Assembly (NCBI RefSeq): GCF_003334405.1
Contig: NZ_QOWM01000003.1
Strand: one strand, 5' to 3'
Source: Escherichia coli
GTDB taxonomy: Bacteria > Pseudomonadota > Gammaproteobacteria > Enterobacterales > Enterobacteriaceae
Length of the DNA stretch: 64,000 bases
A program made the position numbers and the translations under genes. The notes beneath the pieces were generated by a model that saw only the letters and a program-made list of their open reading frames with translations, made no database searches and was not told the DNA's origin. Shown piece by piece: positions 1-21,846 of the stretch; position 1 is the first letter of the stretch, and every line of letters begins with the position of its first letter.

Positions 1-74
1 TGCGTTCAATTGGACTCGAACCAACGACCCCCACCATGTCAAGGTGGTGCTCTAACCAACTGAGCTATGAACGC
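1..74 (-). tRNA. valV: tRNA-Val (anticodon GAC), 3'-truncated by the window edge; the CCA end lies outside
   Basis: Reverse complement of 1..74 reads GCGTTCATAGCTCAGTTGGTTAGAGCACCACCTTGACATGGTGGGGGTCGTTGGTTCGAGTCCAATTGAACGCA, with cloverleaf-compatible acceptor stem, D-loop AGCTCAGTTGGTTAGAGC, anticodon loop CTTGACATG and T-loop GGTTCGAGTCC. Copy assignment (valV rather than valW) is by synteny with ydhQ. Confidence 0.93.
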
Positions 75-1645: not shown

Positions 1646-1678
1646 GGCGCAACCCGTGAAGGTTGCGCCTTGTCTTTA

Positions 1679-1680
<2 letters not shown>
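1646..1680. terminator. Bidirectional rho-independent terminator between convergent ydhQ and mdtK
   Basis: Hairpin GGCGCAACC-CGTGAA-GGTTGCGCC followed by TTGTCTTTATT on the + strand; a T-run (revcomp of TAAAAATACAG) follows it on the - strand. Confidence 0.6.
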
Positions 1681-3073
<1,393 letters not shown>

Positions 3074-3266
3074 TTATATGAGAGACTAAAAAGCCGCCTG
3101 AATGGGCAGCAAAAAGAAGAAGCAGGGGAAATTCAGTCTATTGTAGCGAGGATTTATTAATTCTCCAGTGAAAAAATAGCCATTCTTACCCCTTCACTGG
3201 TAAGGGCGTTTTCCACCTGCTATTGTGCTGAACAGAATGTCTTAACTGATTTCAGGAGTTGTAAGT

Positions 3267-3908
3267 ATGTTTACGGGGATTGTACAGGGCACCGCAAAAC
3301 TGGTGTCGATTGACGAGAAACCAAATTTTCGTACGCATGTGGTGGAGTTACCCGACCACATGCTGGACGGCCTGGAAACCGGTGCTTCCGTGGCGCATAA
3401 CGGTTGCTGCCTGACCGTGACGGAAATTAACGGCAACCATGTCAGTTTTGACCTGATGAAAGAAACGTTACGCATTACCAATCTTGGCGATTTAAAAGTG
3501 GGGGATTGGGTAAACGTTGAGCGTGCGGCGAAATTCAGTGATGAAATTGGCGGACACTTAATGTCAGGTCATATTATGACCACTGCTGAAGTGGCGAAAA
3601 TATTAACCTCAGAAAATAATCGCCAGATCTGGTTTAAAGTCCAGGATAGTCAGTTGATGAAATATATTCTGTACAAAGGATTTATTGGCATCGACGGTAT
3701 TAGCCTGACCGTCGGCGAAGTCACGCCAACGCGTTTTTGCGTCCATTTAATTCCGGAAACACTGGAACGCACGACTCTTGGGAAGAAAAAACTTGGCGCA
3801 CGCGTCAACATTGAAATCGATCCACAAACTCAGGCAGTGGTAGATACGGTAGAACGTGTGCTGGCGGCACGAGAAAATGCCATGAATCAACCAGGCACAG
3901 AAGCCTGA
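3267..3908 (+). CDS. ribC: Riboflavin synthase alpha subunit, 213 aa
   Basis: [51 protein letters not shown]... shows the internally duplicated lumazine-binding fold typical of riboflavin synthase (ribC, also called ribE). Confidence 0.95.
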
Positions 3909-8665: not shown

Positions 8666-8709
8666 TCCATTTCACTCCAGACCCTAACTTCAGCTCCTGC
8701 AAAATCGCA

Positions 8710-8725
8710 AGGTAAACGTTTGCCT
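8710..8725. promoter_or_regulatory. PUR-box operator in the purR 5' leader (autoregulation site O1)
   Basis: AGGTAAACGTTTGCCT (revcomp AGGCAAACGTTTACCT) matches the PurR operator consensus aCGCAAACGTTTtCnT, about 45 bp upstream of the purR start. Confidence 0.7.
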
Positions 8726-8963
8726 TTACACACCTTACGCACAACAAAAGTGTTGCGGTACGCCGGAAAAACGACACGGAGCGTCAGGAAGGGGTCAATG
8801 GCCAGTACGCAAATAGTGTAAGCGTGGAATTTTGGCCGATCTTGACGAAAAGGGGAAGTGGTAAAAACACTTATCATTATAAATGACGGGAGATTTTTTC
8901 ATCACAGTGTGTAAAAATGCGTAATATCACTTTTTGTGTGGTAATAAAAAAGGAGAAAACTTG

Positions 8964-9053
8964 ATGAGCACCGACCTTAAATTTTCACTGGTAACAACGA
9001 TTATCGTCCTCGGTTTGATCGTAGCCGTGGGTTTGACTGCCGCGCTGCACTGA
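8964..9053 (+). CDS. ynhF: Small membrane protein YnhF, 29 aa
   Basis: ATG at 8964 preceded by the AGGAGA Shine-Dalgarno; translation MSTDLKFSLVTTIIVLGLIVAVGLTAALH is a single TM helix. Too short for the supplied ORF track. Confidence 0.8.
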   Translation: MSTDLKFSLVTTIIVLGLIVAVGLTAALH

Positions 9054-9218
9054 TTTCCTCTCGAGGGAGCGCGTTCTCCCTCGCATCTCCTTCCTGTTTG
9101 TTAGCAAAATGGCAAAAGTGTTTTCTCTTTTTGTTATTTTCATTTTTTTGTGATTGCTGTCATGCTTTCGCCACTTTAATGAATATCGCGTAATGACGCG
9201 AAGAGGTGGAGATAAGGC

Positions 9219-18337: not shown

Positions 18338-18745
18338 TTAGTTGCCCAGACCGCGACCGGCGTCTTTCTCTTCGATTAACTCAATTTTGTAACCGTCCGG
18401 ATCTTCCACAAACGCGATAACCGTAGTACCGCCTTTTACCGGACCCGCTTCACGGGTCACGTTACCCCCGTTTTGACGGATTTTTTCGCACGCTTCAGCG
18501 GCGTTATCTACGCTAAGCGCGATGTGACCATAAGCAGTGCCGAGTTCGTATTTATCCACGCCCCAGTTGTAGGTCAGTTCAATCACCGCTTCTTCGGTTT
18601 CCGGGCCGTAGCCAACAAACGCCAGTGAGTATTTGTATTCCGGGTTTTCGCTGGTACGCAGCAGTTTCATGCCCAGCACTTTGGTATAAAAATCGATGGA
18701 GCGTTGCAAATCGCCAACGCGCAGCATGGTATGAAGAAGACGCAT
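18338..18745 (-). CDS. gloA: Glyoxalase I (lactoylglutathione lyase), 135 aa
   Basis: [30 protein letters not shown]... Confidence 0.97.
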
Positions 18746-18825: not shown

Positions 18826-19923
18826 TTACAACGTCGGGTAATCGGTATAGCCTTCCGCGCCGCCACCGTAGAAACTTTCGGCACGCTGTGGGTTAAGCTC
18901 AGCTTTGCGCTGCAAGCGGGCGACCAGATCCGGGTTCGCAATCCAGTCACGACCAAATGCCACCGCATCAATTAACCCTTTGCCGATCAGCGTTTCAGCT
19001 TTTTCTACTGTGTATGCACCTGCGCCGATAATCGGACCGTGGAAACGGGCGCGTACTTTTTCGCGGAACGCATCAGTATACGGTTCACCCCCCGCCCAAT
19101 CTGGTTCTGACATATGCAGATAAGCAATGCCGCGTTTACCCAGTTGTTCAATCAGATACAGTGCATCGGCTTCTTCATTCGGGCCGTTATCTGTGTTCTG
19201 GAAAGTACCGATTGGTGAAACGCGAATGCCAATGCGATCGGCACCCCATTCTTCAATCCCGGCATCGACCACTTCCAGTACCAAACGTGCGCGATTTTCC
19301 ACGCTGCCGCCGTACTGATCGGTACGATGGTTTGAAGAAGGAGAAAGGAACTGATGCAGCAAATAACCGTGAGCAGAGTGGAGCTCTACCAGATCAAAAC
19401 CGGCTTCACGCGCGTTAGCAATGGCCTGACGGAAATCATTGACGATACCTGGAATCTCTTCCAGTTCAAGCGCACGCGGCATGGATGTTTCAACACGGAT
19501 CGCCTGACCATTTTCATCGCGCAGAGAAGTACGTGTTCCCGCGCTAAGTGCTGAAGGCGCTACCGGTGCCTGACCGCCAGGTTGCAGGCTGGCGTGAGAA
19601 ATGCGTCCGGTGTGCCACAGCTGCATGGCCATATGACCATTTTCAGCATGAACGCCAGCGGTGATTTTTTTCCATGCGGCAATTTGCTCCGGACTATGGA
19701 TGCCAGGCGCACCTGCATATCCTTTTGCCTGGGCAGAAATTTGCGTGGCTTCACTAATAATCAAACCGGCACTGGCACGTTGGCGATAGTATTCCGCCAT
19801 CAACGGGGTAGGAATGTCACCCGGTTCAATACTGCGCAGACGCGTCAGCGGTGCCATAAAAATACGGTTTGCCGCCGTGATCGCGCCCACTTTCAGTGGG
19901 GAATACAGTTTTTCAGATGACAT
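18826..19923 (-). CDS. nemA: N-ethylmaleimide reductase (Old Yellow Enzyme family), 365 aa
   Basis: OYE-family flavoprotein ORF, downstream of nemR and upstream of gloA on the same strand. Confidence 0.95.
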
Positions 19924-19959: not shown

Positions 19960-20559
19960 CTAAACGGCAGGCGTCGCAATAATGTTTTTTACATGGGCCA
20001 GCGCGTTTTCCAGTGGCTCGAAACTGCGCGAAATTTTGGCCTGCAGATTCGCGCCAAGCCACAGTGCGTAAAGCACTTGTGCCTGTTGCAGCGGTTCGCC
20101 ACAAAAGGTTAAACAATGGTTCTCACGGCCATTTTCCAGCGCCTGAGAGAGCAGGGCGATCACGCCGCGAGCACCTTTATCCATCGCGCTGCGCATATCT
20201 TCTGACAGATCGCACACTTCGGCAGAGAGTTTTACTGTCAGGCAACCACTGATGGTTCCATGTTGGCAAAACTGGTTCAGTGTTTGCTGGTAATAAGCCA
20301 GTATGCGGTCGCGGTAGTTACCTTCGCCGGATTGCAGCAACTCAGTCAGTCGCTGGTGATATGCGGCGTAATGACGCTCAAGCATGGCAACGCCAAACGC
20401 TTCTTTAGAGCGAAAGTAGTGATAGAAGGACCCTTTCGGCACTTCAGCGGTTTTTAGTAATTCGCTTAGCCCCATCCCGGTGAATCCACGTTGCAGGCAA
20501 AGTTGCTCGCCCGTCGCCAGGAGATGTTCGCGAGTATCATGTTCGGTGTGTTTGTTCAT
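19960..20559 (-). CDS. nemR: TetR-family electrophile-sensing repressor NemR, 199 aa
   Basis: N-terminal TetR helix-turn-helix (REHLLATGEQLCLQRGFTGMGLSELLKTAEVPKGSFYHYF) with conserved Cys residues. Confidence 0.95.
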   Translation of the reverse strand: MNKHTEHDTREHLLATGEQLCLQRGFTGMGLSELLKTAEVPKGSFYHYFRSKEAFGVAMLERHYAAYHQRLTELLQSGEGNYRDRILAYYQQTLNQFCQHGTISGCLTVKLSAEVCDLSEDMRSAMDKGARGVIALLSQALENGRENHCLTFCGEPLQQAQVLYALWLGANLQAKISRSFEPLENALAHVKNIIATPAV

Positions 20560-20572
20560 GCGTTGGAGTGTA

Positions 20573-20588
20573 GTAGACCAGTCGGTCT
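20573..20588. promoter_or_regulatory. Candidate NemR operator (inverted repeat) in the nemR leader
   Basis: TAGACC-AGTC-GGTCTA, 6-bp perfect inverted arms with a 4-bp spacer, 14 bp upstream of the nemR start codon. Assignment to NemR is by position and my recollection of the NemR box. Confidence 0.5.
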
Positions 20589-20661
20589 AGTGCAAGCAAA
20601 GTTGCTACTTTGGACATTAACAGCTTCAATAATGGTAATAATCTTATCTGAGGAGGGCGAA

Positions 20662-20901
20662 GTGGCGGAGCAATTAGAGTTCTTTCCCGTCCAGAGCCCG
20701 TGCCGGGGAATTTGCCAGTCTGACGAACGCGGGTTTTGTCGCGGCTGTTTTCGTAGTCGTGATGAGCGTTTTAACTGGAATAAAATGAGCGATGGCGAAA
20801 AACAAGAGGTGCTGCGCCTTTGTCGGCAGCGATTAATGCGCAAATTACGCGCAAATAAGCCAGCGTCATCAGACGAACCGGAGCAACCATCACTCTTTTG
20901 A
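20662..20901 (+). CDS. ydhL: DUF1289 Cys-rich small protein YdhL, 79 aa (GTG start)
   Basis: GTG at 20662 preceded by GAGGAGGG; translation (M)AEQLEFFPVQSPCRGICQSDERGFCRGCFRSRDERFNWNKMSDGEKQ... has four Cys in a CxxxC...CxxC arrangement. The ORF-track ATG at 20491 would overlap the nemR start. Confidence 0.75.
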   Translation: MAEQLEFFPVQSPCRGICQSDERGFCRGCFRSRDERFNWNKMSDGEKQEVLRLCRQRLMRKLRANKPASSDEPEQPSLF

Positions 20902-20949
20902 ACCTAATCTTGCGTATACTCCTCTCATATCTGATAAGAGGAAGCGATT

Positions 20950-21846
20950 ATGGTTCAGCGTATTACTATTGCGCCGCAAGGCCCGGAGTTTTCCCGTTTT
21001 GTGATGGGCTACTGGCGATTGATGGACTGGAATATGTCCGCCCGCCAGCTGGTCAGTTTTATTGAAGAGCATCTGGATCTCGGCGTGACCACCGTGGACC
21101 ATGCTGATATTTATGGTGGCTATCAGTGCGAAGCGGCGTTTGGCGAGGCACTGAAACTGGCACCTCACCTGCGTGAACGGATGGAAATCGTCAGTAAATG
21201 CGGTATCGCGACGACCGCGCGTGAAGAAAACGTCATTGGTCATTACATCACTGACCGCGATCACATCATTAAGAGCGCCGAACAGTCGCTAATTAATCTC
21301 GCGACCGATCATCTGGATTTGCTGTTAATCCACCGACCAGACCCGTTAATGGATGCCGATGAAGTGGCGGACGCGTTCAAACATCTGCATCAGAGCGGCA
21401 AAGTGCGTCATTTTGGCGTATCGAACTTTACGCCTGCGCAATTTGCCCTGTTGCAATCACGTCTGCCGTTTACCCTTGCCACTAATCAGGTGGAAATATC
21501 CCCGGTGCATCAGCCGTTACTGCTGGATGGCACGCTCGACCAACTACAACAACTGCGTGTTCGTCCGATGGCGTGGTCCTGCCTTGGTGGTGGTCGTCTG
21601 TTTAATGATGATTATTTCCAGCCGCTGCGTGATGAACTGGCTGTGGTGGCAGAGGAGTTAAACGCGGGCTCGATTGAACAGGTGGTTTACGCCTGGGTAT
21701 TACGTTTACCATCGCAGCCGCTGCCAATTATCGGTTCAGGTAAAATTGAGCGCGTACGGGCAGCTGTCGAAGCAGAAACACTGAAAATGACCCGTCAACA
21801 ATGGTTTCGTATCCGTAAAGCGGCACTGGGGTACGACGTACCGTAA
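20950..21846 (+). CDS. ydhF: Aldo-keto reductase family oxidoreductase YdhF, 298 aa
   Basis: Full-length aldo-keto-reductase-like ORF. Confidence 0.9.
   Translation: MVQRITIAPQGPEFSRFVMGYWRLMDWNMSARQLVSFIEEHLDLGVTTVDHADIYGGYQCEAAFGEALKLAPHLRERMEIVSKCGIATTAREENVIGHYITDRDHIIKSAEQSLINLATDHLDLLLIHRPDPLMDADEVADAFKHLHQSGKVRHFGVSNFTPAQFALLQSRLPFTLATNQVEISPVHQPLLLDGTLDQLQQLRVRPMAWSCLGGGRLFNDDYFQPLRDELAVVAEELNAGSIEQVVYAWVLRLPSQPLPIIGSGKIERVRAAVEAETLKMTRQQWFRIRKAALGYDVP

Follow-up and report, generated by a model that had tools for sequence, protein, structure and literature searches.

The window, by which we mean the whole 64-kb stretch of Escherichia coli DNA that was analysed, is part of the core chromosome: all 5426 complete E. 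coli genomes contained the 1.1-kb stretch around the palindrome described below, and in 4219 of these the 108-bp intergenic segment between nemR and ydhL had an identity of at least 99%. Gene names were transferred from annotated E. coli chromosomes with 100% identity and combined with the list of open reading frames. The genes and elements at this locus are the following:

18338 to 18745, minus strand: gloA (100% identity), a co-transcribed NemR target.
18826 to 19923, minus strand: nemA (100% identity), a co-transcribed NemR target.
19960 to 20559, minus strand: nemR, a TetR-family repressor that senses electrophiles and HOCl.
20272 to 20288, plus strand: the published sigma-54 site IA14, CTGGTTCAGTGTTTGCT, within nemR, antisense to it and pointing toward ydhL.
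20574 to 20589, no strand assigned: the NemR box, a 16-bp palindrome that is also a RutR site; exact, unique in the window and published as a RutR site.
20578, no strand assigned: a honey-selected G to A change (nemR sense), candidate operator mutation; both published distances map here.
20650 to 20657, plus strand: the ydhL Shine-Dalgarno sequence, GAGGAGGG.
20662 to 20901, plus strand: ydhL, 79 amino acids, DUF1289/COG3313, GTG start.
20950 to 21846, plus strand: ydhF, an aldo-keto reductase gene, 48 nt past ydhL and in the same frame.

Beyond ydhF lie sodC on the plus strand and then ydhK on the minus strand. The first-pass annotation had placed ydhL immediately divergent from nemR, and the coordinates of the two genes (20662-20901, plus, and 19960-20559, minus) bear this out.

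The same annotation had described an inverted repeat 14 bp upstream of the nemR start. We found this element, TAGACCAGTCGGTCTA, at positions 20574-20589 by reading the sequence and by repeat and pattern searches. Both arms, TAGACC and GGTCTA, are perfect over 6 nt around the centre AGTC, and the repeat search extended them imperfectly to 11 nt. Read in the nemR sense the palindrome is TAGACCGACTGGTCTA, and the nemR ATG at 20557-20559 on the minus strand follows after 14 nt (20560-20573). Over the whole 64-kb window the pattern TAGACC-N4-GGTCTA has a single exact match, which is this palindrome, while none of 100 dinucleotide-preserving shuffles of the window contained one. Versions with two mismatches are no longer rare (0.74 expected), and it is thus the exactness of the palindrome that matters. 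An Rfam search of the region found nothing.

The element is already known as the NemR box, which is also a site for RutR, and it is real and functional. The motif TAGACCnnnnGGTCTA directly upstream of nemR is the NemR box; it occurs exactly at 20574-20589 and is the same 16-mer published at -22.5 of ydhM. We take the NemR footprint to be this 16-mer, and the palindrome at 20574-20589 was reportedly named the NemR box by Umezawa et al. 2008. For RutR, the nemR-sense sequence is listed verbatim as a target, detected by ChIP-chip and shifted in EMSA (Shimada et al. 2008, PMC2475637), with its centre at -22.5 from the ydhM (nemR) start and a match to 11 of the 14 RutR consensus positions. The distance from the centre of 20574-20589 to position 20559 is 22.5 nt, in agreement with the published value. 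NemR (YdhM) has been classified as a single-target factor, with the nemR promoter as its sole genomic SELEX target and nemRA-gloA as its regulon (PMC5934670), and NemR has been described as repressing through an inverted repeat in its own promoter (as summarised in PMC13178969). N-ethylmaleimide, methylglyoxal, quinones and HOCl inactivate NemR, and transcription of the operon reads through into gloA (PMC3739934, PMC5297802).

Selection experiments point to the same element. In E. coli K-12 evolved in methylglyoxal-rich honey, every adapted line carried either a coding mutation in nemR or the same intergenic G to A change, which was given as -84 from ydhL and -19 from nemR and was present in four isolates; the nemR coding mutations of the other lines were loss-of-function. 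Both distances map to position 20578, the second G of the GGTCTA half-site. The change thus behaves as expected of an operator-constitutive mutation and is a candidate for one, on the basis of selection data. The claim that the palindrome is the nemR operator had therefore already been established by others, through the published RutR site, the NemR SELEX target and the mutation within the box that was selected alongside nemR alleles. Compared with the NemR box described for the E. coli nemRA-gloA operon (Umezawa 2008; Gray 2013; Lee 2013; Ozyamak 2013), the organism, the locus, the 16-bp sequence and the position are identical, and the element itself does not differ; what is added here is its placement in a promoter spacer, its conservation across the order and a likely leaderless start of the mRNA.

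These additions come from phylogenetic footprinting across species, from which both promoters discussed below were deduced. The sample comprised the ydhL loci of 80 Enterobacterales species and four further loci, and the loci were searched with a 14-sequence alignment, whose matches were all from Enterobacterales. A related box adjoins the nemR start in all 58 of the 58 loci that carry nemR, whether or not ydhL is adjacent. It is exact in 48 of them, has one mismatch in 4 and two or three mismatches in 6, five of the latter being symmetric variants of the form CAGACC...GGTCTG. In the 52 species with at most one mismatch, the box lies 10-23 nt from the nemR start, most often 14 nt. The centre of the box varies among species (AGTC, GATT, AATC, GGTC, ATTC), whereas the half-sites are fixed.

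Around the box, a conserved order was found in the direction of nemR, consisting of TTGCAT, TTGCAC or TTGACC, then the box plus 1 nt (together a 17-nt spacer), then TAnnnT, then 6-10 nt and the ATG. In almost all of the 58 species the -35-like hexamer directly borders the box, a few Erwinia and Pantoea loci having a weaker or shifted version. A single nucleotide separates the box from the TAnnnT hexamer in every species; E. coli has TACACT, Salmonella TATATT, Klebsiella TACAGT and Cronobacter TAGATT. Between this hexamer and the nemR ATG no Shine-Dalgarno sequence was found in the 58 species. In the window, the corresponding elements are:

20590 to 20595, minus strand: putative nemR -35, TTGCAC, from the phylogenetic footprint.
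20567 to 20572, minus strand: putative nemR -10, TACACT, from the phylogenetic footprint; 7 nt to the ATG.

The box would then make up 16 of the 17 bp between the putative -35 and -10 of nemR. A consensus scan of 20400-21000 for sigma-70 promoters and terminators returned no promoter at threshold and just two implausible intragenic terminators. The heptamer CTTCAAT was considered as a second nemR -35 and rejected, as it stays with ydhL in Cronobacter and in many species where an eptA-like gene intervenes.

The first-pass annotation had assigned the palindrome to the leader of the nemR-nemA-gloA operon, a placement that the conserved -10-like hexamer downstream of it makes improbable. Because the box fills the 17-bp spacer and is followed by about 7 nt and the ATG with no Shine-Dalgarno sequence, it is probably a promoter operator rather than a leader element, with the geometry of steric repression if the promoters are correctly placed. 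With 7 nt from the -10 to the ATG and no Shine-Dalgarno sequence among them, the nemR mRNA probably has little or no leader. The leader placement also bears on whether the palindrome might have arisen by chance, or might be an RNA hairpin of the leader, with no protein-binding role; its arms could indeed form a 6-bp stem. We consider this extremely improbable: no exact palindrome arose in the shuffles, a -10-like hexamer is conserved downstream, and protein binding at the palindrome has been published (PMC2475637). Besides, it is the sequence of the half-sites that is conserved and not pairing alone, and together with the variable 4-nt centre this points to protein binding rather than to an RNA stem.

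Which protein the site mainly serves is the next point to be weighed, given that RutR, the regulator of pyrimidine catabolism, occupies it in vivo and shifts it in vitro, and that nemR is included in a RutR regulon list derived from RegulonDB (PMC5934670). The RutR box TTGACCAnnTGGTCAA, which also belongs to a TetR-family regulator, has the GACC-N4-GGTC core in common with the NemR box. A primary role in RutR control of nemR or ydhL is nevertheless very unlikely. RutR sites mostly have little effect on transcripts (PMC2475637), no regulatory consequence of RutR has been reported here, and according to a review of the original studies RutR occupies the site upstream of nemRA-gloA without regulating the operon (PMC5297802). 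The outer positions of the box are TA/TA, as opposed to TT/AA in the RutR box, so that TAGACC stands where the RutR consensus has TTGACC, and these deviating bases are kept as TAGACC/GGTCTA wherever nemR occurs. In addition, the methylglyoxal selection struck the box or nemR and not rutR.

The arrangement proposed for nemR resembles that of tetO/TetR, QacR and AltR. These repressors control their own genes through an inverted repeat that overlaps the core promoter, and a ligand or a covalent modification lifts the repression. In the case of AltR of Pantoea ananatis, a NemR homologue, the inverted repeat overlaps the -10 and the ribosome-binding site. A difference from tetO concerns the divergent gene: tetO lies between tetR and tetA, which are truly co-regulated, whereas ydhL, the gene divergent from the NemR box, is not consistently associated with the operator among species.

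The region upstream of ydhL has a conserved pattern of its own. The motif TTGnnn-N16-18-TTCAAT is present in 49 of the 80 species, some of them with no adjacent nemR, and roughly 30 nt lie between its end and the start codon. Its counterpart in the window is:

20602 to 20630, plus strand: putative ydhL promoter, with the -35 TTGCTA at 20602-20607, a 17-nt spacer and the -10-like TTCAAT at 20625-20630.

The putative nemR and ydhL promoters are thus arranged back-to-back. The NemR box ends 12 nt upstream of the putative ydhL -35, with no overlap, and its centre lies about 55 bp before the predicted ydhL start, so that a NemR dimer on the box would probably leave the ydhL core promoter accessible.

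The first-pass annotation had raised co-regulation of ydhL with nemR, or a functional tie between the two, and a shared bidirectional operator would account for such a link, with NemR also repressing or modulating ydhL (and ydhF) and YdhL acting in the electrophile response. Several observations are in line with this. With the promoters back-to-back and the box 12 nt from the putative ydhL -35, ydhL could be influenced in E. coli by NemR, or by RNA polymerase at the nemR promoter. Detoxification is a recurrent theme among the neighbours (gloA, nemA, the aldo-keto reductase gene ydhF and sodC), overexpression of ydhL scored for resistance to H2O2 and HOCl in an ASKA screen, and a methylglyoxal-induced RNA polymerase ChIP-chip region of 1.5 kb covers all of nemR and about 60% of ydhL. 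However, a 1.5-kb region is too coarse to separate divergent promoters that are 100 bp apart, the box is clear of the putative ydhL core promoter with its centre at about -55, and both the curated NemR regulon and the SELEX targets consist of nemRA-gloA alone (PMC5934670).

The distribution of the genes and of the box across species also weighs against a shared operator. The gene nemR is divergent from and adjacent to ydhL in 36 of the 80 species, while the two genes are 1.8-3.6 kb apart in 22; another 20 species have ydhL with no nemR within 5 kb, and 2 more have short flanks. In the separated class, a gene for an eptA-like phosphoethanolamine transferase, sometimes with two more genes, lies between nemR and ydhL. 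In these 22 species no box with at most one mismatch was found upstream of ydhL, and the box stays at nemR. The box thus tracks nemR, and about 20 species keep ydhL although nemR is missing from its vicinity. We therefore regard a shared bidirectional operator as unlikely, and the proposed co-regulation or functional tie found no support: comparative genomics does not support membership of ydhL in the NemR regulon, an effect local to and specific for E. coli being possible.

The most constant neighbour of ydhL is ydhF, which is directly downstream of it in 59 of the 80 species. Beyond the Enterobacterales, synteny was covered by four metagenomic or genomic contexts of DUF1289 genes; none of the four had a TetR or Old Yellow Enzyme neighbour, and the neighbours were unrelated. 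In Photorhabdus, ydhL was observed directly beside gloA, with nemRA missing. Since the eptA-like spacer gene is found across Erwiniaceae, Yersiniaceae and Cronobacter, the tight juxtaposition of nemR and ydhL looks derived in the group of Escherichia, Salmonella, Klebsiella and Citrobacter.

Considering these results and the previous studies on NemR, we propose that the NemR box lies in the spacer of the nemR promoter as the operator of nemR-nemA-gloA, that ydhL is a separate unit not controlled by NemR, and that the adjacency of the two is lineage-specific; we assign this reading a probability of roughly 0.75. The sequence of the palindrome, its conservation and its linkage to nemR are shown directly, next to binding and genetic data from the literature, while the hexamers of both promoters, the lack of a leader on the nemR mRNA and the independence of ydhL from NemR are inferred. 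The box at 20574-20589 would serve as the operator of the autoregulated operon, and a bound NemR dimer would exclude RNA polymerase from the nemR promoter because the box occupies the spacer between the -35 and the -10. Electrophiles and HOCl modify cysteines of NemR, upon which NemR is released and nemA and gloA are derepressed. The paralogous TetR-family protein RutR would also bind the site, with no known regulatory effect, and the nemR transcript would start at or next to the ATG and hence be leaderless. On the other side, ydhL would form its own transcription unit with the promoter TTGCTA-N17-TTCAAT, back-to-back with the nemR promoter, and its adjacency to nemR in Escherichia, Salmonella, Klebsiella and Citrobacter would be a lineage-specific trait and not a conserved regulatory or functional unit.

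The protein encoded by ydhL matches Pfam DUF1289 (PF06945) over residues 12-57 with an E-value of 3.1e-19. The first-pass annotation had described a 79-residue DUF1289 protein with four cysteines; the family assignment stands and four cysteines are invariant, but the E. coli protein has five in total (14, 18, 26, 29 and 54), the first four of which form the invariant motif CX3CX7CX2C. A HMMER scan for DUF1289 gave 1316 clusters at 50% identity. Among 109 diverse members, P13, C14, C18, C26, C29, R31, E35 and W39 are invariant, and Q4, G24, G28 and R57 are nearly so. The AF2 model of YdhL has a pLDDT above 90 in the core and of 60-74 in the tail. Within ydhL, the features of interest are:

20701 to 20748, plus strand: codons of the Cys4 motif C14-X3-C18-X7-C26-X2-C29, invariant in 109 homologues.
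20671 to 20685, plus strand: codons of the N-terminal Q4-L-E-F-F8, resembling a clamp-binding motif.
20884 to 20898, plus strand: codons of the C-terminal Q75-P-S-L-F79, resembling a clamp-binding motif.

The suggestion that this may be a metal or Fe-S protein is correct as an annotation, the source annotations reading 'predicted Fe-S protein'. In the entry DUF1289/COG3313, 'predicted Fe-S protein YdhL', YdhL is the name-giving member, with a full-length Pfam match and the four invariant cysteines. Structure and literature searches found no member of DUF1289 with a solved structure or a tested function. An IS1 element splits ydhL in one natural strain, in which the gene is thus dispensable; the 'essential' call for ydhL comes from TraDIS only and is unreliable for a 240-bp gene. 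A phage search detected DUF1289 in a few jumbo phages only.

The termini of the DUF1289 proteins contain a further recurrent feature. Their C-terminal tails are variable and of low complexity, with the recurrent pattern Q-x-x-[LM]-F. There are 93 instances of Qxx[LM]F in the tails of 55 of the 130 intact representatives, one to four per protein, while 1000 shuffles of the tails gave an expectation of 2.2 ± 1.5 with a maximum of 9. The second position of the motif is mostly L, F, A or I and the third is D (51 instances) or S (19), and 38 of the motifs end at most one residue from the C-terminus. Exact QLDLF, QLSLF, QFDLF, QLDMF and QADMF are all present among the tails. At the other end, Q-[LI]-E-[FL]-F is found in at least half of the DUF1289 representatives, and Q4 is at least 90% conserved across the family. 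Among 79 distinct Enterobacterales orthologues, EQLEFF (residues 3-8) and QP[ST]LF (residues 75-79, the extreme C-terminus) are both at least 95% conserved, whereas the linker at 62-73 is variable.

The beta sliding clamp binds a consensus QL[SD]LF, or QxxLxF in hexapeptide form, with QLGLF in Pol II, QLNLF in UmuC, QADMF in the alpha subunit of Pol III and QLSLPL at the N-terminus of Hda. In the clamp literature, QLDLF, QLSLF and QADMF co-occur with the term 'clamp-binding motif'. The DUF1289 tails resemble beta-clamp binders in that Q-[LFAI]-[DS]-[LM]-F, which matches this consensus, occurs in them one to four times, often at the very end of the protein, and the conserved N-terminal QLE[FL]F is placed as in Hda. 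They differ from beta-clamp binders in that DUF1289 has no replication or repair domain, and many homologues have more canonical motifs than the QLEFF and QPSLF of E. coli YdhL itself. In an AF2 prediction of a DnaN-linker-YdhL fusion, DnaN itself had a mean pLDDT of 57 and a pTM of 0.33, the DnaN homologues all being at least 87% identical, so that the model speaks neither for nor against docking. Judging by the titles and abstracts of the literature that mentions ydhL or DUF1289, the clamp is not apparent there as a subject. We tentatively suggest, from the motifs in the sequences and with somewhat less than even odds, that YdhL and its DUF1289 relatives could be small Cys4 metalloproteins (zinc or Fe-S) that dock on the beta clamp through their terminal motifs, in which case the position next to nemR would be incidental. 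This observation on the clamp motifs is the only part of the analysis that might be new.

Overall, the palindrome is a textbook operator of a characterised stress operon and carries little weight as a discovery, and what the analysis chiefly does is to remove an unsupported guilt-by-association link between NemR and ydhL. Its by-products are an order-wide picture of the nemR promoter, with an operator in the spacer and a probably leaderless mRNA, and a candidate promoter for ydhL. The clamp reading gives a testable hypothesis for a protein family that has no known function. If it is true, a widespread, uncharacterised and possibly redox-sensitive partner would join the bacterial clamp interactome, and a cysteine-rich member of the clamp interactome of E. 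coli could tie metal or redox state to replication or repair.

The gene nemR, which encodes a TetR-family repressor, and the spacer between it and the divergent ydhL contain the following elements, listed here with RNA features from elsewhere in the window.

Promoter and RNA features of the window
20557-20595, minus strand: probable nemR promoter and start region, from the layout comparison
20602-20630, plus strand: candidate ydhL promoter TTGnnn-N17-TTCAAT, a conserved element upstream of ydhL
20272-20288, plus strand: published sigma-54 binding site IA14, CTGGTTCAGTGTTTGCT
8666-9056, plus strand: STnc550, an enterobacterial sRNA (Rfam, 396 bits, gathering threshold passed)
1-74, minus strand: tRNA at the window edge (Rfam, gathering threshold passed)

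On the minus strand of window positions 20557-20595, a Shine-Dalgarno sequence is absent before nemR, and only 7 nt separate the conserved TAnnnT hexamer from the nemR ATG. This layout recurs in 58 Enterobacterales species, with the ATG 6-10 nt past the -10. Because the short distance is conserved and a Shine-Dalgarno sequence is missing, the sequence suggests that the nemR mRNA is leaderless. On the opposite strand, TTGnnn-N17-TTCAAT is a probable ydhL promoter. Its candidate -10 is unusual in having no A at position 2, and the CTTCAAT in which it lies is near-invariant between genera, a conservation exceeding the level usual for a plain sigma-70 -10. The sigma-54 site IA14 lies within nemR, antisense to it and directed toward ydhL.

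The distance between nemR and ydhL varies among genera. An eptA-like phosphoethanolamine transferase gene separates them in genera such as Cronobacter, Pantoea, Erwinia, Serratia and Yersinia (loci L004, at 1668-3296, L019, L027, L037, L050, L083 and about 20 more), and at some of these loci genes encoding an NAD-binding protein and a LysR protein lie in between as well. Since this spacer is found in many genera, the close adjacency of nemR and ydhL in E. coli looks like a derived deletion. Insertions were also observed at the locus: IS1A splits ydhL in the complete E. coli genome USMARC-51688 (L091, 1233-2279), and in the complete genome of E. coli strain A10 a Tn3-family transposon breaks the locus on the nemR side.

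Downstream, ydhL and ydhF share a reading frame across a gap of 48 nt (window 20899-20952), and no other neighbour of ydhL is as constant as ydhF (59 of 80 species). This constancy fits with the 394-aa AFDB entry S5N7T4 from Salmonella bongori, a YdhL-YdhF fusion that could reflect stop-codon loss or an annotation artefact.

In alignment A7 of DUF1289 proteins, a bacterial SH3_3 domain is fused to DUF1289 in two long members (P0144 and one other); the remaining long forms are mostly mere tail extensions with additional QxDLF motifs. Unannotated DUF1289-like ORFs also occur in the Pseudomonas jumbo phage PaBG (KF147891.1, 234937-235086) and in the huge uncultured phages LR756501 and LR756508.

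YdhL itself carries a motif at each terminus.

Terminal motifs of YdhL
20671-20685, plus strand: residues 4-8, the N-terminal QLE[FL]F of DUF1289 proteins
20884-20898, plus strand: residues 75-79, the C-terminal motif of DUF1289 proteins

Among homologues P0121-P0268, the N-terminal QLE[FL]F is conserved, and the C-terminal Q-x-[DS]-[LM]-F is present in one to four copies per protein in tails that are variable elsewhere; 93 C-terminal motifs were observed, against 2.2 expected from shuffling. The beta sliding clamp is bound through the consensus QL[SD]LF. As putative clamp-binding sequences, the terminal motifs of the DUF1289 proteins match this consensus, exact QLDLF and QADMF among them.
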